A stretch of DNA of 64,000 bases, from positions 32,394 through 96,393 of the forward strand of contig LYSZ01000010.1 in assembly GCA_001657385.1 (NCBI GenBank), given 5' to 3'. Shown here in pieces: positions 2,970 through 38,674 of the stretch. Under the pieces are notes generated by a model, which saw nothing but the letters and a program-made list of their open reading frames with translations, did not search any database and was not told where the DNA came from. The DNA comes from Parvularcula sp. BBD 1991-13 (GTDB lineage: Bacteria > Pseudomonadota > Alphaproteobacteria > Caulobacterales > Parvularculaceae). The position numbers were made by a program, and so were the translations under genes. The stretch's first letter is position 1. Every line of letters begins with the position of its first letter.

Positions 2970-4601
2970 CTATTGCGGCTCGCCGAGGCGGTCGAGGTTC
3001 ACCGTCGCGGCGTCGTAATTGGCGCGGGCGATGCGCGATTCCAGTTCCGCGGCGAGCAGCCGGATGCGGGTGTCGGCGGCGGTTTCCTCGCGCACGTTGA
3101 CCAGGAAAAAGTCGCTCGCCCCTTGTGCGAAGCGCTGATTTTCCGCGCGCTGCATAATCAGCGCCTGTTCGACTTCGCCCTCCGCGATCGCGGCGACCTG
3201 GAGCGAGACGTCGAGGTCGATGAGGATGTTGCGCAGCTCGATTTCCATCCGCTCCATCGCCTCGCGCCGGCGCTGGGTCAGGGCTTCGGCCTCGGCCCGC
3301 GCCTTTTGCAGCCGGCCGCGCGCCTCGCTGCGCTGGAAGGGAACGGAAAAGCGGAAACCGACGATCGCATCGGTGGAATCGAACGTCGATCCCCCCTCGG
3401 CGATGTCGCCGAGATCGTGGGAGACCTCCGCGCGCACGTCGAACCGCGGCTGCAATTCGTTGCGGTTCAGCTCGATCCGCCGCCTTGCGCGGTCGAGGGC
3501 GACGCGCAGCCGGGCGAGTTCGGGGCGCTGCGCCAGCGCGTCGGCGATGGGCGGCGCGGCGCTGATGTCGAGCGCGCTGATCGGCTCCAGCATCTCGTCG
3601 GGGGGCAGTCGGCGCTCCTGCGGGATCAGGGGCGATCCCGCGGCGTCGCGGTAAAACATGGAAAGGGCGTTCGCCGCCGTCATGAAATCGCGCCGCGCCT
3701 GGGTGGCGAGCCGCTGGCGGCGCATGATGTTCTGGAGGTTCTCGGCGAGGAAAATCTCCGCGATCGCCCCCCGGCGGACCTGTTCCTCCAGGCCCGCCTG
3801 GCGCTGCTCGGCGATGCGCAGCAGGTCGTCATAGACGTCCAGTTGCCGGCCCGCGATGACCCAGCGCCAATAGGCGAGGATGGCGCGATGCTGAACACCG
3901 ATATGGATGAGCAGGCTGTCCAGCTCCGCCTGCTCCAGCGCCAGGCGCGCATCGGCGGTGCGGAACCGCCGGTCGTCGATGGCGCGGTCGCGCAGCAGCG
4001 AGAAAATGGCGCCGACTTTCAACTCGCCGCCGGTATTGGTGAAATTGACGTTCTCATAGATGGGAAAGAACCCGTCCGAACGGCGATAGCCGCCATAAAG
4101 CGTCCCGCCCAGAGGGCGCAGGTTCTGGCGCAGTTCGGTATTGACGACGCGCCCCGTCCAGACCCCGGAGACGCGGTCGAAGCCGTCGGCGGCGAAAACG
4201 AGGTCGAAGGCGCCGTCCGCCGTCAGGACGTCGCCCGCCGCGGCGCGCTCGTTCGCGAACGCCTGCAGGATGGTCGGAAAGTGCGCCGCCGAGGAGCGCA
4301 GGACATCGTCCAGCAGCAACGGTCCGCTCTGAGACGACGGCGGCGAGACCGGGGGCAAGGATTTCAGCGACGGCGCCGCCGGCGGCGCGCGCCGGGCGCT
4401 GAAGGCGGTCTCGCCGGCCTTGAGGCGCTGTTGGGATCGGACATATGGCGCGTCTTGAACGGGCTGGGCGTTTTGAGCAGACTTGGCCTCTTGAACAGGC
4501 TGGGCAGCGGCGCCGGCGGCGAGCCCGGCGTTCGGCGCGGACGCGGTCCAGGCGACAAATCCCGCCGCGGCGCTGGCAAGCGCGTTCAGCCTCATCATCA
4601 A
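2970..4601 (-). CDS. TolC-family outer membrane efflux protein
   Basis: Signal-like N-terminus, helical OEP-type repeats, last gene of ABC-HlyD-OMF operon. Confidence 0.8.
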   Translation of the reverse strand: MMMRLNALASAAAGFVAWTASAPNAGLAAGAAAQPVQEAKSAQNAQPVQDAPYVRSQQRLKAGETAFSARRAPPAAPSLKSLPPVSPPSSQSGPLLLDDVLRSSAAHFPTILQAFANERAAAGDVLTADGAFDLVFAADGFDRVSGVWTGRVVNTELRQNLRPLGGTLYGGYRRSDGFFPIYENVNFTNTGGELKVGAIFSLLRDRAIDDRRFRTADARLALEQAELDSLLIHIGVQHRAILAYWRWVIAGRQLDVYDDLLRIAEQRQAGLEEQVRRGAIAEIFLAENLQNIMRRQRLATQARRDFMTAANALSMFYRDAAGSPLIPQERRLPPDEMLEPISALDISAAPPIADALAQRPELARLRVALDRARRRIELNRNELQPRFDVRAEVSHDLGDIAEGGSTFDSTDAIVGFRFSVPFQRSEARGRLQKARAEAEALTQRRREAMERMEIELRNILIDLDVSLQVAAIAEGEVEQALIMQRAENQRFAQGASDFFLVNVREETAADTRIRLLAAELESRIARANYDAATVNLDRLGEPQ

Positions 4602-33049: not shown

Positions 33050-33514
33050 TTAGTAGAGCGGGAGCGGCTGCTGGGCCGAGGCCGCCACAGGTTGAGCGTT
33101 CTTGAACGTATCGGTGAGATAGTCGAGCACCGGCGAAAATACATCCAGCTTAAGGGTGTCTTTCATTTCATCCAGCGTCACCCATTTGACTTCTGCTATT
33201 TTGTGCTTTTCGACCGGTTCGCCTTCGCCGCGACGGTGCTGACAGAAAAAGTAGTCGATCTTGTGCTTCGTATGCGGATGGATGCGCCGGCCGAGGCGGC
33301 GCAGGGGTTTGCATTCGATATTGGCTTCTTCGAAAACTTCGCGCTTGGTGGCCGCCTTGCTGTTTTCGTGGGGCTCCACCTTGCCGCCGGGGAAGGCCCA
33401 GACAAGATCGCCTTCCGGATTGGCCCGCTTGATGAGCAACACCTTGTCTCCGCGCACGACGACGGCGAGCGCGACAAGAGGCTCCGGAGTCCGGTTGTGT
33501 TCAGCTCTGGCCAT
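33050..33514 (-). CDS. NUDIX hydrolase (soluble, near-canonical Nudix box)
   Basis: GKVEPHENSKAATKREVFEEANI; lower GC than flanks. Confidence 0.88.
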   Translation of the reverse strand: MARAEHNRTPEPLVALAVVVRGDKVLLIKRANPEGDLVWAFPGGKVEPHENSKAATKREVFEEANIECKPLRRLGRRIHPHTKHKIDYFFCQHRRGEGEPVEKHKIAEVKWVTLDEMKDTLKLDVFSPVLDYLTDTFKNAQPVAASAQQPLPLY

Positions 33515-33532
33515 GAATCAACAGATATACGC

Positions 33533-34087
33533 TTAAGAAGCGATGGTTTCAAGATAATCGGCGACTTTGGCGTCCAGATCCGTAGATATCATGGACTTTA
33601 CGTCTCCGGCGTTAACCCAGGCGACATCGTCATTTTCATCACGATCAAGGTTTTTAGCCTCACCTTCGAGGTAGCGGCAAGCAAAATAGTGGACATAGGC
33701 GCCGGTATCGGGATGCGTTCTCTTGCTCAGTTCCGTATCGACTTCGCAGCGGATATTGGTTTCCTTAAACACTTCCTTAACGACCTCCGCGGCCGGAACT
33801 TCACCGGGACGCACGCCGCCGGAGGGAAACTGCCACGACAGCTTCTCTCCCTTGGGGCGCCGCTTGACCATGAGCACCTGGCCGCGCCTAGCGACCACCG
33901 CCGCCGCGACCACGAGGCTCGCCGACCTGGCGACGTCTTTCCGCGTGGGCGGCGGCGCGTCCGTCGATGGCACCGGAGCGGCGGCTGTTCGCCTCCTCGC
34001 CGAGAAATAGACCCTGTAGACCCACATGCCTCCCGCGCCCGTTGTCGCCAGAATTGTTGCGATCGCGGCAAGGCTCGCCAAGTCCAT
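33533..34087 (-). CDS. NUDIX-fold protein with N-terminal membrane anchor and degenerate Nudix box
   Basis: Hydrophobic LAAIATILATTGAGGMWVYRVYF then GGVRPGEVPAAEVVKEVFKETNI. Confidence 0.85.
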   Translation of the reverse strand: MDLASLAAIATILATTGAGGMWVYRVYFSARRRTAAAPVPSTDAPPPTRKDVARSASLVVAAAVVARRGQVLMVKRRPKGEKLSWQFPSGGVRPGEVPAAEVVKEVFKETNIRCEVDTELSKRTHPDTGAYVHYFACRYLEGEAKNLDRDENDDVAWVNAGDVKSMISTDLDAKVADYLETIAS

Positions 34088-34123
34088 CAGGCTGTCTCCG
34101 ACTTGTTTGTGACTTCAAATTGT

Positions 34124-34171
34124 TTTGAAAAGGCAAAAGACGCGGTTGTCAATCTTGCAGGAAATGCAAGA
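34124..34171 (-). promoter_or_regulatory. Putative promoter (TTGACA) with adjacent palindrome TCTTGCA-N5-TGCAAGA for the Nudix pair
   Basis: TTGACA on minus strand at 34152-34147; perfect inverted repeat 34153-34171; -10 element not clear. Confidence 0.5.
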
Positions 34172-34228
34172 TGAAAAAGGCTGTCTTCTATATTTATACA
34201 GCCCTGAAGAACCGGCGCGTCAGGATCC

Positions 34229-34270
34229 TCAAAGCGCGCCCGCGCCCATGGGATCGTCGCGCGCGATCAT
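34229..34270 (-). pseudogene. Probable stranded 5' fragment of hemW ([13 protein letters not shown])
   Basis: ATG overlaps the rdgB stop (ATGA); the peptide joins in register to GVYVHWP of hemW. Confidence 0.5.
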
Positions 34271-34869
34271 CGATCAAGACATGCTTTCTTCAGCTTACGG
34301 AAGGCGTCGGCGCGGTGGGACATGGCGTGCTTGCGCGCCGGCTCCATCTCCCCGAACGTCGTCTCGAAGCCGTCGGGGACGAATATCGGGTCGTAGCCGA
34401 ACCCCCTGTCGCCGCGCGGCGGGAAGACCAGGCGTCCGCGCGCCTCGCCTTCGAACACGATGTCCTCGCCGTCCGGCCAGGCAAGGCAAAGGACGCATAT
34501 GAAGCGGGCCGCGTAATCGGTCGCGCCTTTCGCCTTCAGCGCCGCCTTGACCTTGTCCATGGCCCGGCCGAAATCGCGGGGCTCGCCCGCCCAGCGGGCG
34601 GAGTAAACGCCCGGATCGCCGCCGAGCGCGTCCACCGAAAGGCCGGAATCGTCGGCCAGCGCCGGCAGGTCCGCCCCGTCCGCCGACGCCCGCGCCTTGA
34701 GGCGGGCGTTCGCCTCGAAGGTCGTTCCGGTCTCTTCCGGGTCGGGCAGGCCCAGCGCCGCCGCGGCGACCGGCGCGATCCCGAAGGGTTCCACCAGCTC
34801 CTTGATTTCCCTGATCTTTCCTTCGTTGTGCGAGGCGATGACCAGCCTTCCCGGCGCCAGTTTTCGCAT
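34267..34869 (-). CDS. rdgB: dITP/XTP pyrophosphatase RdgB
   Basis: [46 protein letters not shown]; RBS GGAGGG before ATG 34869. Confidence 0.96.
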
Positions 34870-34906
34870 CCCTCCAGCCATGGTTTTATCCCTTTTCGAA
34901 AAAAAA

Positions 34907-34971
34907 TTATCGTTTTTCGGCAAAAACCGCTTTACATCGTTTTTCGATAAGGCTATATCGAAAATCAACAA
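34907..34971 (+). promoter_or_regulatory. Sigma70 promoter (TTTACA-17-TATATC, GCTATATC) with three (A/T)(T/C)ATCG-N5-C(G/A)(A/G)(T/C)AA operator-like sites
   Basis: -35 at 34931-36, -10 at 34954-59; sites at 34907-23, 34934-50, 34955-71. Confidence 0.6.
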
Positions 34972-35160
34972 GACGGCGGATCAACCGCTGCACGGACAAC
35001 CCGGTCAAAAGATCTCGCAGGAAGCCTGCGCAAGAGGCGATAGACCGGGACGGCCGCAGGCGAAAGACCTGAACCCGGATCAGCATGAGTTCGCGCATAA
35101 GCGGACAAAAATATAAACGAGTAAAAAAATGAGCGGCAGGGAAATCCCTAACCGCTCAAG
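34965..35160 (+). ncRNA. Candidate structured 5' leader or sRNA
   Basis: Nested stems 35000-06/35043-49, 35016-21/35025-30, 35057-60/35068-71, 35130-36/35152-58. Confidence 0.4.
35123..35158 (-). terminator. Intrinsic terminator-like hairpin with U-tract on the minus strand
   Basis: TGAGCGG..GGGA-A-ATCCC..CCGCTCA preceded by A7 on the plus strand. Confidence 0.55.
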
Positions 35161-35214
35161 AAAATCAGAATGAGTTGCGTCAGATCAACACGTCAAAAGA
35201 AAAGGAGAAACACC

Positions 35215-35349
35215 ATGCGTCACCAACACTCGAACGATAGCTTTGGAAATTTCGCCGGTCTTGTCAATAGCCTGATTGCTTTCGCCGCCGTAACCGTCAT
35301 TGGCGCGGGCTACCTTTCGGCTCTTGGCGCCTTTGCGGGGATCGCCTGA
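35215..35349 (+). CDS. Small hydrophobic protein, 44 aa (MRHQHSNDSFGNFAGLVNSLIAFAAVTVIGAGYLSALGAFAGIA)
   Basis: Strong RBS AAGGAGA before ATG, one TM-like segment, TGATG coupling to next ORF; below the ORF track cutoff. Confidence 0.7.
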   Translation: MRHQHSNDSFGNFAGLVNSLIAFAAVTVIGAGYLSALGAFAGIA

Positions 35350-35498
35350 TGTCGAAACTTGCACAGATCGGGGCCGCGGCGGCGTTCGCGGCCCTGGCGG
35401 CGGCGAGCCTCGTCGGTTTCGCCGGCGCCGCGTCCGAGACCCCCGCCGCCGGCGCCGCGCGGTGCGAGCCCGGCGCCTGTTTCATCGCCATCTTTTAG
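35349..35498 (+). CDS. Small signal-peptide protein, 49 aa (MSKLAQIGAAAAFAALAAASLVGFAGAASETPAAGAARCEPGACFIAIF)
   Basis: ATG overlaps upstream stop; GC3-rich codons; signal-like N-terminus and C-terminal CxxxxC. Confidence 0.62.
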   Translation: MSKLAQIGAAAAFAALAAASLVGFAGAASETPAAGAARCEPGACFIAIF

Positions 35499-35558
35499 CC
35501 GCGGCCGGCTCTGGACTTTGGGCGCGGCTGCGCTGACGAAAGGAAACGGGAGGGATTG

Positions 35559-36077
35559 ATGCGCGCAATCGGCAAGGGGTCGCTGTCATCCATACTGGCC
35601 GCCGGCCTTCACATCACCCGGATCATCCTCTGGGTCGGGTTCATCGGCCTGTCGGTCGCGATGGTGGTCATTCCGTTTCTGTCGGGCATCCTCGCCCTGG
35701 CGGAAAGCGCTTCGGGCGGCGCGGTCAACGCCGATATCGACGTCGAGCCCGGCGACTATATCGAGGTCTCCCATCATTTCGTCACCTTCGCGGTGATGCT
35801 GTTCGTGGTGAACCGCTTGCTTGAGATTCTCAAAACCCTGCGGTTCGGCGCCCCGTTCGTGAAGGAAAACGCGGACCGCTTCCGCGGGGTCGGCTACGCG
35901 CTCCTCATCGGCGAGGGCGCGAAGATCGCCTTCGGTTTTCTCTCGCTGGTGAACAACGCCGATACCGGCATCGACACCAGCGTTATCTCGTGGCTGTCGA
36001 TCATCGCCGTCTTCGTGCTGGCCGAGGTCTTCCGGGAGGGCGCGCGCATGAAGGAGGAACAGGACCTGACCGTCTGA
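35559..36077 (+). CDS. DUF2975-like membrane protein
   Basis: PFVKENADRF, VLAEVFREGARMKEEQDLTV C-terminus; RBS GGGAGG. Confidence 0.85.
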   Translation: MRAIGKGSLSSILAAGLHITRIILWVGFIGLSVAMVVIPFLSGILALAESASGGAVNADIDVEPGDYIEVSHHFVTFAVMLFVVNRLLEILKTLRFGAPFVKENADRFRGVGYALLIGEGAKIAFGFLSLVNNADTGIDTSVISWLSIIAVFVLAEVFREGARMKEEQDLTV

Positions 36078-36081
36078 CCCC

Positions 36082-36648
36082 ATGGCCGTTTTACCGCTCA
36101 TAGATTTGTTCAAACACGAGGCCCTGCCCGACTGGCGCACCCGCGCCTTCTGGTTCGGCACGCGCCCCACCCTGGCCATGCCGGCGCTGATGATCGGCGT
36201 CGTGTCTTGCCTTTATGTCCTTATCCTGACCAAGCTCGCCGCCGCGCTGCTGTTCTATGCATGGCCCGGGGACGGGGCGCGGTCGCTGGCGCTCGTTCTG
36301 GAGGACGAAATTCCGAACGGGTGGCTGATCGCCAAGGAGACGGCGCTTTACGCCGCCTGCGTTTTCATCGGCGAGAACGCGGCGCGCGCCGCCCTCGACA
36401 TCGCGGCGCTCAAGCCTTTCAGCGACATCAACGCAAAACGGTTCATGCGCGCCGCGGCGGGCGCGGGCGCGGCGGTGGGCTTTCAGTTCTGCGCGCGCCT
36501 CGCCGAGCGGGCGCTGGGCCTGCCCGAGGTCGGCGTCGGCGGCGCAATGGCCGTTTTCGCGGTTCTGACGGGGGCGATCTTCGTCAGCCTCAGCCTGGCT
36601 TTCGCGCAGGGCGCGGAATTGAAAAAAGAACAGGACCTGACGGTCTGA
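36082..36648 (+). CDS. Second DUF2975-like membrane protein
   Basis: PFSDINAKRF, LSLAFAQGAELKKEQDLTV; same C-terminal motif as upstream gene. Confidence 0.78.
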   Translation: MAVLPLIDLFKHEALPDWRTRAFWFGTRPTLAMPALMIGVVSCLYVLILTKLAAALLFYAWPGDGARSLALVLEDEIPNGWLIAKETALYAACVFIGENAARAALDIAALKPFSDINAKRFMRAAAGAGAAVGFQFCARLAERALGLPEVGVGGAMAVFAVLTGAIFVSLSLAFAQGAELKKEQDLTV

Positions 36649-36854
36649 TGGCGATTTCCGTCAAGCTGGACCGCGTTCTTCTGGACAAGGGCATGTCGCT
36701 GACCGAGCTGTCGGAGCGCGTCGGCGTGACCATCGCCAATCTGTCCATTCTCAAGACCGGCAAGGCCAAGGCGATCCGTTTTTCCACCCTGGAGGCGATC
36801 TGCCGGGAGCTTGACTGTCAGCCCGGGGACATTCTCTTTTTCGACGACGGCTAG
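36648..36854 (+). CDS. XRE/Cro HTH transcriptional regulator (YozG-like)
   Basis: MSLTELSERVGVTIANLSILKTGKAKAIRFSTLEAICRELDCQPGDIL; TGATG coupled. Confidence 0.93.
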   Translation: MAISVKLDRVLLDKGMSLTELSERVGVTIANLSILKTGKAKAIRFSTLEAICRELDCQPGDILFFDDG

Positions 36855-36971
36855 AGCCAATTGCGGTCAACGCGGTTCGCCATTGACGCTGGTCCCCATT
36901 AGCTCCGGCTTCTCAAGCGGCGCTCGCCCGCGAACGGCGACACCGGCGATCCGCGTTCGCCGCAACCTGCT

Positions 36972-38459
36972 CTAGCGATAGGGCGCGGCGGCGGGATCGC
37001 GCCCGGCGTCGTCCTCGGCGACGGCGTGGGGGCGCGCCTCGCGCACCGCGCGGCTGCGCCAGGCATAGGCGAAGAGGACCAGGGCGAGGGTCATGGTGAA
37101 CAGGTACGGCGCCTGCGGCGCGACGCCGTACAGCCAGAAGCCGACAAGCGGGGCGACGATGAAACCGGAGGCGCCCGCGGCGTTGGCGAGGCCGATGGCC
37201 GCCCCCTGTTCCTCCGGGCGCACGGCGAGGGACGCCGCGGCGTTGAAGCCCGGCGCGGCGAGCCCGGCGCCGAACCCCGCCAGCACCATGCCGAACACCA
37301 CGACCCCGAGATGGGGCAGCGCGGCGATCAGCAGGTGGCCGAGGGCGAACAGGGCCGGGGCGACCCGCATCAGCGTCGCCGGCGTCAGCCGCAGCCGCTG
37401 CACGATGACAAGCTGGGAAAACAAGGAGGCCATCGCCCCGCCCATCAGTCCGACGCCGACGATCTGCGGCGCGAGATCGGTGGAAAAGCCGAGCGCGTCG
37501 ATGAAGTAAAACGCAACCGTCTGTATCGGGATGGCGTTGATGACGCCGAAGACGAGGCCGTAGATCAGGAACGGCGCGATGCGCCGGTCGGTCGGGCGCA
37601 GGCGCGGACCTTTCATGCGCCGCGTCGGCGCCGTGCGCTCCGGCAAGAACGCGATCACGGCGGCGCTCATCACGAAGGCGAGGGCGGAGATGGCGAAGAA
37701 CGGCGCGGTCTTGCCGAACACCGACGCCGCCGCGCCGAAGCCCGGTCCGAGCATGGCGCCGAAGCCGAACGCGGCGGAAAAGCTGGCGATCCCGGCGGTG
37801 CGGTCAGCCGCGCTGGTGCGGTCGGCGATATAGGCCTGCGCGGCGGGCGGCCCGGCGGAGCCGAGAACGCCGTACAGGCTGCGCGCCAGCACCATCGTCA
37901 AATAGAGCGGCAGGCCGGAAAGGACGCCCGCCAGCCCGAGTTCCACCGAGCCGCCGAAAAACAGCATGGAAACGCCGAAGGCCGCCAGTCCGGTCACGAT
38001 GAAGGGCTTGCGGCCGCGGGCGTCGCTGAGCCGTCCCCAGCGCGGCCCGAGCGTGACCCAGCAGATCGCCGAGATCATGAAAATCAGCCCGACCTTGATC
38101 TCCGGCAGGCCCAGTTCGCGCGCCAGCGGCGGAAGCACGGAAAAAACGATCGTCTGACCCATGCCGGAGCAAACCGCCCCGACGAGCAGCACCGCAATGG
38201 CGAAGGCCCGCGCGCGGGGGCTGGTTCTCGGCGCGTCCGAGGCGTCCTGCCTGTCCCCTTCCTCGGCGTCCCCTTCCTCGGCGTCCCCTTCCGCGGTCGG
38301 CGCCCGGCTGGCGGCGTCCTGCGCCCGGTCGCCGCCGACATCGTTCTCCGCTTCGCTGTTCGTTGCCGTGTTCGCTACTTTGTTTGATCCCGGATGGGCG
38401 TCCTGGGAAGCGGGTGCGGCCGGCGTTGCGTCCGGGCCCTTGTCGTCGGGGGCGGTCAT
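36972..38459 (-). CDS. MFS transporter (TetA/DHA1-like)
   Basis: WGRLSDARGRKPF motif A, AQAYIADRT, ~12 TMs; N-terminal acidic linker with EGDAE repeats. Confidence 0.9.
   Translation of the reverse strand: MTAPDDKGPDATPAAPASQDAHPGSNKVANTATNSEAENDVGGDRAQDAASRAPTAEGDAEEGDAEEGDRQDASDAPRTSPRARAFAIAVLLVGAVCSGMGQTIVFSVLPPLARELGLPEIKVGLIFMISAICWVTLGPRWGRLSDARGRKPFIVTGLAAFGVSMLFFGGSVELGLAGVLSGLPLYLTMVLARSLYGVLGSAGPPAAQAYIADRTSAADRTAGIASFSAAFGFGAMLGPGFGAAASVFGKTAPFFAISALAFVMSAAVIAFLPERTAPTRRMKGPRLRPTDRRIAPFLIYGLVFGVINAIPIQTVAFYFIDALGFSTDLAPQIVGVGLMGGAMASLFSQLVIVQRLRLTPATLMRVAPALFALGHLLIAALPHLGVVVFGMVLAGFGAGLAAPGFNAAASLAVRPEEQGAAIGLANAAGASGFIVAPLVGFWLYGVAPQAPYLFTMTLALVLFAYAWRSRAVREARPHAVAEDDAGRDPAAAPYR
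38253..38297 (+). repeat. 3 x 15-bp in-frame tandem repeat within the MFS N-terminus
   Basis: GTCCCCTTCCTCGGC at 38253, 38268 and a variant at 38283. Confidence 0.8.
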
Positions 38460-38674
38460 GGCCGATGTCTGACCACGACGCCGCCGGCTTGGCAATCCGC
38501 CGCCGGACGGACCGCGCGCCGCAAGTCCCGCCGGCGTCGCCTTTTTTCGCCTGCTGTCAGGGCCTTGCGCGGGGGCGTGCAATCATTTGCCCTTTGTGGA
38601 GGATTTGCTACGCTTCGCGGAGAAACAGGACGCCGGAGCGCAATCCGGCGAGACCGCATTGGGAGCTTCGCCGC

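Follow-up and report, generated by a model that had tools for sequence, protein, structure and literature searches.

Two small-protein genes at the head of the operon

We examined a locus in a 64-kb window of DNA from Parvularcula sp. BBD 1991-13 (contig LYSZ01000010.1; coordinates throughout are positions in this window), in which two very short open reading frames, ORF1 and ORF2, precede two genes for membrane proteins of the DUF2975 family and a gene for a small XRE regulator. All five open reading frames were found where a first-pass annotation of the same DNA had placed them, between 35215 and 36854. For comparison we assembled a set of 80 loci, one per species, taken from genome assemblies and anchored on the first DUF2975 gene, whose homologues (60–91% identity) come from Hyphococcus, Marinicaulis and other Parvularculaceae. 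The invariant core of these 80 loci is ORF1-ORF2-DUF2975-XRE, and sequence comparison identifies the locus as a chromosomal, stably syntenic, single-copy and vertically inherited operon of the Parvularculaceae.

ORF1 (35215–35349, plus strand) encodes a 44-residue small protein, MRHQHSNDSFGNFAGLVNSLIAFAAVTVIGAGYLSALGAFAGIA, with a single transmembrane (TM) segment. The strong ribosome-binding site (RBS) noted previously corresponds to a Shine-Dalgarno (SD) sequence, AAGGAG, at 35202–35207, 7 nt ahead of the ATG, and the TM helix with GxxxG-like spacing was recovered as one hydrophobic segment covering residues 12–43, with the spacings G32xxxA36 and G38xxxG42. M1, V17, N18 and Y33 are invariant, G38 is conserved in at least 90% of sequences and the helix is rich in glycine and other small residues. 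ORF2 (35349–35498, plus strand) encodes 49 residues that comprise a hydrophobic N-terminus resembling a signal sequence or membrane anchor (residues 4–29), a variable linker, a C-x4-C motif and a hydrophobic tail. Its start codon overlaps the stop codon of ORF1 (cTGATGt), as expected from the translational coupling originally proposed, and its C-terminus reads CEPGACFIAIF, also as originally described. Both cysteines of the suggested disulfide loop turned out to be invariant, as is M1, and the hydrophobic tail that follows them usually ends in FF or IF.

Conservation of the small open reading frames upstream of DUF2975-XRE loci, which the earlier reading had left to be checked, is extensive. 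A tblastn search found a syntenic ORF1 in 74 of the 80 loci (E≤1e-3) and a syntenic ORF2 at the same threshold in 46, with weaker syntenic matches in most others. Intact ORF1 sequences of 41–45 amino acids were extracted from 78 relatives (79 sequences including the window) and intact ORF2 sequences of 47–55 amino acids from 74 (75 including the window). An ATG start and an RBS (AAAGGAGA or AAAGGAA) are conserved for both across the relatives, and ORF1 and ORF2 overlap through TAATG or TGATG in most loci; a deeper clade has a spacer of 24–57 nt instead. Pairwise ratios of nonsynonymous to synonymous substitution rates (dN/dS) were 0.30–0.42 for ORF1 and 0.42–0.60 for ORF2 in frame, compared with 1.0–1.9 in the two shifted frames, and in both cases variability peaks at the third codon position in the proposed frame only. 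The ORF2 linker is near neutral (dN/dS ~1.2). Since both reading frames are intact, syntenic and under frame-specific purifying selection, they qualify as selected protein-coding genes, and the comparison identifies ORF1 and ORF2 as genuine, evolutionarily maintained genes throughout the Parvularculaceae (~75 of 80 species).

The opposite view, that these are chance open reading frames in GC-rich DNA or leader peptides of irrelevant sequence, could draw on the base composition of ORF1, whose GC content at third codon positions (GC3) is only 0.60, against ~0.85 in its neighbours (0.84–0.88 in frame for ORF2 and the three larger genes), and on the alanine-rich, low-complexity nature of ORF2. We regard it as essentially refuted by the conservation of length, start, RBS and coupling over ~75 species, by the frame-specific selection, by invariant residues that include the cysteine pair and by the GC3 of 0.88 in ORF2 itself.

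A profile search of 5.8 billion proteins returned 91 clusters for ORF1 and 55 for ORF2, and an exhaustive search of 1.84 billion representatives with a hidden Markov model returned 45 clusters for ORF1. Nearly all members of these clusters are 41–55 amino acids long, none carries a Pfam domain and the named sources are all Parvularculaceae. ORF1 had no match in Pfam, NCBIfam or PADLOC, the best being DUF3149 at E = 0.029, below the cut-off. On the evidence of these searches both peptide families are lineage-specific and previously undescribed. The description of the two genes as unannotated therefore stands in the sense that they belong to no described family; it does not hold for GenBank as a whole, where several records of genomes or metagenome-assembled genomes carry adjacent "hypothetical protein" calls.

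Membrane proteins, the XRE regulator and a putative operator array

The first membrane protein gene (DUF2975 #1, 35559–36077, plus strand) encodes a YoaS-like protein that matches PF11188 with 42.8 bits against a cut-off of 27, and PF11188 was found in all 120 of its listed homologues. The second (DUF2975 #2, 36082–36648, plus strand) encodes a product with an N-terminal LFKHEA.PDWR motif that ends in KKEQDLTV. As a single sequence it scores 23.1 bits against PF11188, below the cut-off of 27. However, comparison of the profiles built from the two paralogue alignments gave a probability of 99.8% (E = 1.5e-27) over 161 columns that include a conserved loop and the KEEQDLTV tail, which identifies it by sequence as a true DUF2975 paralogue. 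The earlier description of two DUF2975-like proteins that both end in EQDLTV is thus borne out, by Pfam for the first and by profile-profile comparison for the second. Duplication of the gene does not define the system, however, because a second copy is present in 16 of the 80 loci and the other 64 have a single copy.

The optional slot between DUF2975 and XRE holds two types of paralogue with ~20% mutual identity, both of which keep the F..N..R loop and the KEEQDLTV tail. Type a, to which DUF2975 #2 belongs, is marked by an N-terminal LF.HEA.PDWR motif and type b by GGDPxDxDA; the slot is filled in loci L002, L008, L014, L020, L021, L037, L039, L043, L045 and L056 (~3516–4110) on the one hand and in L009, L022, L033 and L038 on the other. 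The patchy phylogenetic spread of the second gene suggests repeated gain or loss. AlphaFold2 models DUF2975 with confidence as a four-helix bundle (predicted local distance difference test score, pLDDT, 85), and the family is marked by the loop RFG(A/S)PFVKENADRFR and the tail MKEEQDLTV. From the charge distribution and the positive-inside rule we infer an N-in/C-in topology, in which the conserved loop, like the tail, is cytoplasmic and the most variable, acidic loop periplasmic. A DUF2975 profile had no match among PDB sequences, and Foldseek searches with the model returned nothing significant (best E 0.9, generic four-helix bundles only).

The last gene (36648–36854, plus strand) encodes a 68-residue XRE protein with a YozG-like, Cro/C1-type helix-turn-helix domain of the HTH_26 family (PF13443, 75.2 bits). 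Its start codon overlaps the stop codon of the preceding DUF2975 gene (TGATG), as had been noted, and coupling of DUF2975 to XRE is found in 80 of 80 loci as well as in Gemmatirosa (see below). Identity within the family is 87–97% and dN/dS is 0.03. The protein shares its small single-domain fold family with VanU and other stand-alone HTH_26 regulators, including PDB entries 3tyr and 3tys ("predicted transcriptional regulator"), but similarity is low (33 bits against a cut-off of 150 for VanU in NCBIfam; E = 1e-5 for 3tyr) and the gene context is different.

Between ORF2 and DUF2975, directly 3' of the ORF2 stop codon, lies a GC-rich hairpin (35497–35529, plus strand; −25.7 kcal/mol) that has no T-tract. 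In some relatives the same spacer contains an unrelated hairpin of equal strength, in others no hairpin at all; that of the window may be a lineage-specific mRNA stabiliser, a partial barrier or an inserted repeat. The spacer varies from 17 to 256 nt across the loci, with no common structure, and we found no conserved terminator (hairpin or T-tract) in it when we looked across the loci, so that co-transcription of ORF2 with DUF2975 is the default reading.

As the first-pass annotation stated, the association of DUF2975 with XRE (YoaS-YozG) is a known conserved gene pair of unknown function (PMC2701414; bioRxiv 10.64898/2026.09.15.751765). The Xre-YoaS pair has been recognised as conserved since at least 2009, when Makarova et al. 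left it out of their type II toxin-antitoxin candidates under the annotation "membrane protein, likely permease" (PMC2701414). A recent preprint noted that YoaS-YozG operons are preceded by inverted repeats and proposed that these serve as an operator (bioRxiv 10.64898/2026.09.15.751765). The same trait, an AT-rich region with inverted repeats, is present in Parvularcula (GC content is 52% in the intergenic region upstream of the operon and 67% in the window), but it lies 5' of ORF1 and not directly 5' of DUF2975. The repeats comprise four tandem sites resembling TTATCG-N5-CGATAA (at 34886, 34907, 34934 and 34955; block 34886–34971) with a spacing of 21, 27 and 21 nt, and they are the sole matches with at most two mismatches in the 64-kb window. 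An alignment of the 260 nt upstream of ORF1 shows that this block is nearly invariant in 74 loci. Exact matches to TATCGATAA and ATCGTTTTTCGAT were found in 43 and 37 loci, respectively, each time as a single copy at the position of the array. The array lies between the start codon of rdgB (34879–34881, minus strand), which is divergent from the operon and occupies this upstream position (as rdgB/Ham1) in 74 loci, and the ORF1 leader. Its first site is 5 nt from the rdgB start and overlaps the rdgB RBS.

A candidate operon promoter, P1, lies within the array (34931–34959, plus strand), with a −35 element TTTACA (34931–34936), a 17-nt spacer that contains an ATCG-N5-CGAT palindrome and a −10 element TATATC (34954–34959, in GCTATATC). 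P1 was read by hand and is conserved in the leader alignment; a strict sigma-70 scan yielded no promoters here, P1 being missed because its −10 element ends in C rather than T. Directly after P1, at the start of the leader, a short conserved stem-loop (34972–34991; ACGGCGG / CCGCTGC) shows compensatory changes between loci. The minus-strand version is the more stable in 46 loci and the plus-strand version in 25; the element was listed as terminator-like on the minus strand and is followed there by a T-rich stretch.

Our outgroup is a single locus (L081) on a megaplasmid of Gemmatirosa (Gemmatimonadota), which carries the sole distant DUF2975 homologue in the plasmid collection. This DUF2975-XRE pair has neither rdgB nor small open reading frames beside it. 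Its XRE protein (L081 1790–1993) is 71% identical and 85% similar to that of the window, and ATTATCGAT and ATATCGATAATCGA lie immediately 5' of the DUF2975 gene (L081 1190–1230). The small repressor and the TATCGATAA-type palindrome are thus co-conserved unusually deeply between the window and L081. Since the palindrome is shared with an operon that lacks rdgB and carries a 71%-identical XRE, the TTATCG-N5-CGATAA array (TATCGATA-type) is likely to be the operator of the XRE repressor; rdgB may share this control. The absence of the small open reading frames from the outgroup operon, as judged from this one locus, also implies that in the Parvularculaceae they are a lineage-specific insertion between the operator/promoter region and DUF2975.

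A predicted antisense element over the start of ORF1

The ORF1 leader contains a sequence (35123–35157, minus strand) in which the stem GAGCGG (35131–35136)/CCGCTC (35152–35157) is followed by T7 (35123–35129). It lies 45–69 nt upstream of ORF1 and is present in all aligned loci, where the T-run appears as a run of seven or eight A residues on the plus strand. The inner stem is variable but compensated, the consensus fold having three pairs with compensatory changes, and the mean stability is −19 kcal/mol with T7–8. Among 58 unique sequences the hairpin is more stable as minus-strand RNA in 52 and as plus-strand RNA in four (p = 3e-9). The minus-strand form contains 62 G-U pairs and the plus-strand form none, and the T-run is found on the minus strand only. 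Because hairpin stability, G-U pairs and the T-run are all strand-specific in this way, we assign the element as a predicted intrinsic terminator of a minus-strand transcript. The alternative that the A-run and hairpin form a plus-strand leader element was ruled out by the same strand test (52 versus 4).

A candidate promoter for such a transcript, like P1 read by hand, lies inside ORF1 (35239–35267, minus strand), with a −35 element TTGACA (reverse complement of 35262–35267), a 17-nt spacer and a −10 element AAAGCT (reverse complement of 35239–35244). The heptamer TTGACAA (reverse complement of 35261–35267) is invariant in every locus, and in 76 unique sequences its plus-strand form TTGTCAA shows at least 97% conservation. 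GTC is the codon for Val17 in all 79 loci, and codon 16 has T in its third position without exception, against a strong genomic preference for G or C in third positions and in contrast to the other ORF1 valine codons, which vary freely. The −10 element, AAAGCT in the window, has the consensus GAAGTT, with A2 invariant and T6 present in at least 90% of loci. The synonymous rate is low in ORF1 codons 1–18 (pS 0.26 versus 0.44, in closer pairs). In codons 19–44, which encode most of the TM helix and are free of the overlap, dN/dS is 0.22 in pooled comparisons and 0.09 in close pairs, compared with 0.19 for DUF2975, which rules out that conservation of ORF1 is a mere by-product of the antisense overlap. 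Taken together, the substitution patterns indicate that ORF1 is constrained both as protein and as DNA. The invariant residues Val17-Asn18 (codons 16–18, 35260–35268) coincide exactly with the minus-strand TTGACA(A), a case of dual coding in which the −35 box may contribute as much as peptide function to their invariance, or in which the promoter may be conserved because of the amino acids. The antisense overlap accounts for the low GC3 of approximately the first 18 codons only, and the remainder of ORF1 also favours A/T-ending codons (TTT, AAT, GGT, GTT, TAT).

The geometry of promoter and terminator predicts a cis-antisense RNA of ~105–110 nt (~35123–35232, minus strand) that would be fully complementary to the first six codons of ORF1, its start codon, its SD sequence and ~80 nt of leader. 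The predicted RNA folds into an open 5' part followed by the terminator (z = −2.4), and its U-rich anti-SD sequence, UUUCUCCUUUUC, is predicted to be unpaired. The distance between promoter and terminator is conserved (~105 nt) and brackets the translation-initiation region of ORF1 exactly. It is this combination of the invariant TTGACAA with the strand-specific terminator that predicts an antisense RNA over the ORF1 RBS, and on these sequence features ORF1 appears to be controlled by a cis-antisense RNA.

The minus-strand elements could instead serve rdgB, as its distal promoter and a terminator or attenuator in its leader, or could insulate it from spurious antisense transcription, a reading that concerns this sub-feature of the locus only. 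The syntenic rdgB gene does lie downstream on the minus strand, neither the sigma-70 scan nor reading by hand recognised a clear proximal rdgB promoter, and the second hairpin (34972–34991) is, as noted above, somewhat more stable on the minus strand. A strong terminator would, however, be expected to allow little read-through to rdgB, and the conserved span of ~105 nt brackets the initiation region of ORF1 exactly, so that we consider a role for these elements in the expression or insulation of rdgB quite improbable.

Transcript evidence came from Logan contigs of RNA libraries, all of which are unstranded, short and shallow and were used for presence only. In two metatranscriptome runs, contigs on the locus of one relative (L032) cover the leader from just past the predicted P1 start across the terminator (2490–2641) and, separately, the 3' end of ORF1 across the junction through ORF2 (2727–2974). 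Two further RNA libraries gave contigs on the window itself at 35113–35256 and 35144–35268; otherwise only spurious 20–30-nt pieces fall in 34700–37000, and the matches from X12 and X13 are spurious pieces of this size from long contigs. The leader, ORF1 and ORF2 are thus transcribed, and the co-transcription of ORF1 with ORF2 expected from the first-pass annotation is upheld by the contigs that cross their junction. Since one contig reaches 90 nt past the antisense terminator, a plus-strand leader transcript is also supported. In L001 a single contig links ORF2 with DUF2975, but it is not certain that its library is of RNA; the same doubt applies to runs X5–X7, whose high-depth contig is from a different, more abundant species. 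Across the four independent RNA libraries, genuine contigs were found only on the leader, ORF1 and ORF2 and never on DUF2975, XRE or rdgB (window 34700–37000; L032 2200–3800). There is a hint here that RNA of the operon's 5' part, or a short RNA derived from that part, is much more abundant than the remainder, but the depth is too low for certainty.

An antisense RNA over the start of a small hydrophobic protein invites comparison with type I toxin-antitoxin loci such as SymE/SymR, AapA1/IsoA1 and Ibs/Sib, in which the antisense RNA overlaps the 5' part of the toxin mRNA. If the likeness were functional, ORF1 would be a membrane-damaging toxin and the antisense RNA its antitoxin, with ORF2 and DUF2975 providing immunity or being mere neighbours and XRE setting the level of transcription. 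Several features suit this reading: the 44-residue ORF1 product is hydrophobic, with a single TM segment that resembles a glycine zipper, its SD sequence is very strong and preceded by a long structured leader, the conserved antisense promoter, which lies within the open reading frame, and the terminator cover exactly the SD sequence and start codon with a short, terminator-ended RNA (predicted here), and the RNA contigs are concentrated on the leader/ORF1 region. Typical type I toxin loci are, however, mobile or present in multiple copies, and a charged C-terminal tail is common in their toxins. ORF1 lacks such a tail and has no match in known toxin families; it is translationally coupled to ORF2 and holds a fixed syntenic position at the head of a larger regulatory operon that is single-copy and vertically inherited. 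A toxin function for ORF1 is therefore possible, but we think it unlikely.

In the model put forward in the first-pass annotation, ORF2 would be exported and cleaved to a disulfide-looped signal of ~20 residues, sensed by DUF2975 and relayed to XRE, with ORF1 aiding export or sensing. The ORF2 N-terminus does have the n-h-c organisation of a signal sequence, including small residues (LATA/AGA) ahead of the variable region, and the C-x4-C is invariant. The linker is near neutral or diversifying (dN/dS ~1.2), pheromone-like peptides often diversify likewise, and the most variable part of DUF2975 is the predicted periplasmic loop. Against this, the locus encodes no dedicated exporter, protease, modification enzyme or kinase, and the strongly hydrophobic ORF2 tail favours association with the membrane over diffusion. 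Tight 1:1 coupling to a TM peptide and control of dosage by antisense RNA would suit structural or regulatory subunits better, and the Gemmatirosa module has no such peptide at all, so that the peptides are an addition of one lineage and not the input of DUF2975-XRE modules in general. Sensing of a secreted cyclic peptide has thus found no specific support and we consider it distinctly unlikely. The presence of an operator array and an antisense element is more suggestive of small proteins that act on membranes or in regulation, whose dosage is tightly controlled, than of a signal that diffuses.

Genomic surroundings and a model for the operon

The minus-strand genes divergent from the operon (33050–34881) form a house-cleaning nucleotide group of two adjacent NUDIX hydrolases and RdgB/Ham1, of which relatives keep synteny for RdgB only. 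Downstream, a convergent gene for a major facilitator superfamily (MFS) transporter is present in 52 loci. In the window, the mechanically listed MFS reading frame (36972–38582, minus strand, 536 amino acids, TTG start) begins with a low-complexity extension of ~130 residues in which Ala, Asp and Glu abound. MFS_1 was matched by the 406-residue C-terminal part (36975–38192), so that the true start probably lies further downstream than the one listed. Neither in the operon nor beside it did we find a gene for an exporter, a protease, a modification enzyme or a kinase. No Rfam family was detected in 34700–37100 at a permissive threshold or in the whole 64-kb window at the gathering threshold, and the window contains no tRNA gene. 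The four small or membrane proteins had no match among defence systems (PADLOC) or in NCBIfam, and XRE matched only the generic PADLOC model HTH_VI (E = 5.6e-6).

The explanation that best accounts for these observations, to which we give about an even chance, is an autorepressed membrane regulatory module of the YoaS/YozG type that has gained two small envelope proteins. These would modulate the module or be accessory subunits of it, and a cis-antisense RNA would gate their synthesis. In this model, the XRE repressor would bind the tandem array that overlaps P1 and so autoregulate the operon, possibly together with the divergent rdgB. Transcription from P1 would yield an mRNA with a structured leader of ~250 nt, followed by ORF1, ORF2, one or two DUF2975 genes and XRE. 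ORF1 would be a single-TM peptide and ORF2 a periplasmic peptide, either held by its signal anchor or cleaved, in which a Cys-x4-Cys loop precedes a hydrophobic tail, and translational coupling would ensure that the two are made in a fixed ratio. The antisense RNA of ~105 nt, initiated at the TTGACA promoter in ORF1 codons 16–18 and ended at the leader terminator, would pair with the SD sequence and start codon of ORF1 and so limit peptide synthesis post-transcriptionally. The site of action of both peptides would be the membrane, where they would modulate the DUF2975 protein or join it as accessory subunits; the cytoplasmic loop and KEEQDLTV tail of DUF2975 would in turn control the availability of the XRE repressor. 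We infer from sequence each of the binding events in this scheme, the topology of the proteins, the transcription and effect of the antisense RNA and the functional chain from the peptides through DUF2975 to XRE.

Several observations weigh against this model. The antisense −10 element is weak, its conserved A2 and T6 are also constrained by codons, and the antisense RNA is a prediction from sequence. DUF2975 and XRE are not covered by any contig in the clearly metatranscriptomic runs, whose contigs are short, of low depth and unstranded. Within the Parvularculaceae the operator array abuts the syntenic rdgB, which leaves the regulated gene ambiguous. The DUF2975 fold has no characterised relative in the PDB, and the outgroup module, represented by one locus, lacks the peptides, which are thus not essential to the core module.

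Small membrane proteins encoded beside their partners offer a mechanistic analogy for ORF1 and ORF2. MgrB is a 47-residue inhibitor of PhoQ, and KdpF and CydX are small subunits encoded in the operon of their partner. The Parvularculaceae peptides share with these proteins their size (44–49 residues here), a single N-terminal hydrophobic helix and a gene position beside the presumed partner, and ORF2 shares with MgrB a conserved pair of cysteines, here predicted to be periplasmic. There is, however, no sequence similarity, and the presumed partner is neither a histidine kinase nor a transporter, so the analogy is one of mechanism only. With the YoaS-YozG pair (Bacillus subtilis names) the operon shares its last two or three genes (PF11188 and PF13443), their tight coupling, the AT-rich inverted-repeat region upstream and the EEQDLTV tail; it differs in having two lineage-specific small-protein genes and a cis-antisense element upstream and, in 16 of 80 loci, a duplicated membrane protein gene. 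The conserved operator array and the predicted cis-antisense element over ORF1, as read from the sequence, are newly recognised here and were absent from the first-pass annotation.

A more ambitious form of the model would integrate all of these parts into one switch, in which DUF2975 reads the membrane or redox state of the Cys-loop peptide and its KEEQDLTV tail captures or releases the YozG-type repressor, with the micropeptides and the antisense RNA included. We regard such a switch as unlikely, but if true it would provide the first mechanistic handle on the YoaS-YozG module, and the −35 box in the Val-Asn codons would be a built-in feedback.

YoaS-YozG is a common conserved bacterial gene pair to which no function has been assigned, and the version found in the Parvularculaceae is unusually well marked, with a likely operator, two small proteins under selection as candidate partners and a predicted antisense RNA. 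It adds two families to the catalogue of bacterial small membrane proteins and provides an example of overlapping constraints, in which a predicted promoter hexamer within a gene of only 44 codons fixes synonymous sites and may also dictate two of the codons themselves. Cultured hosts are available (Hyphococcus luteus, H. aureus, H. flavus and Amphiplicatus metriothermophilus), so that experiments are feasible, and the importance of the locus would rise if the peptides and the antisense RNA prove to be a handle on YoaS-YozG function.

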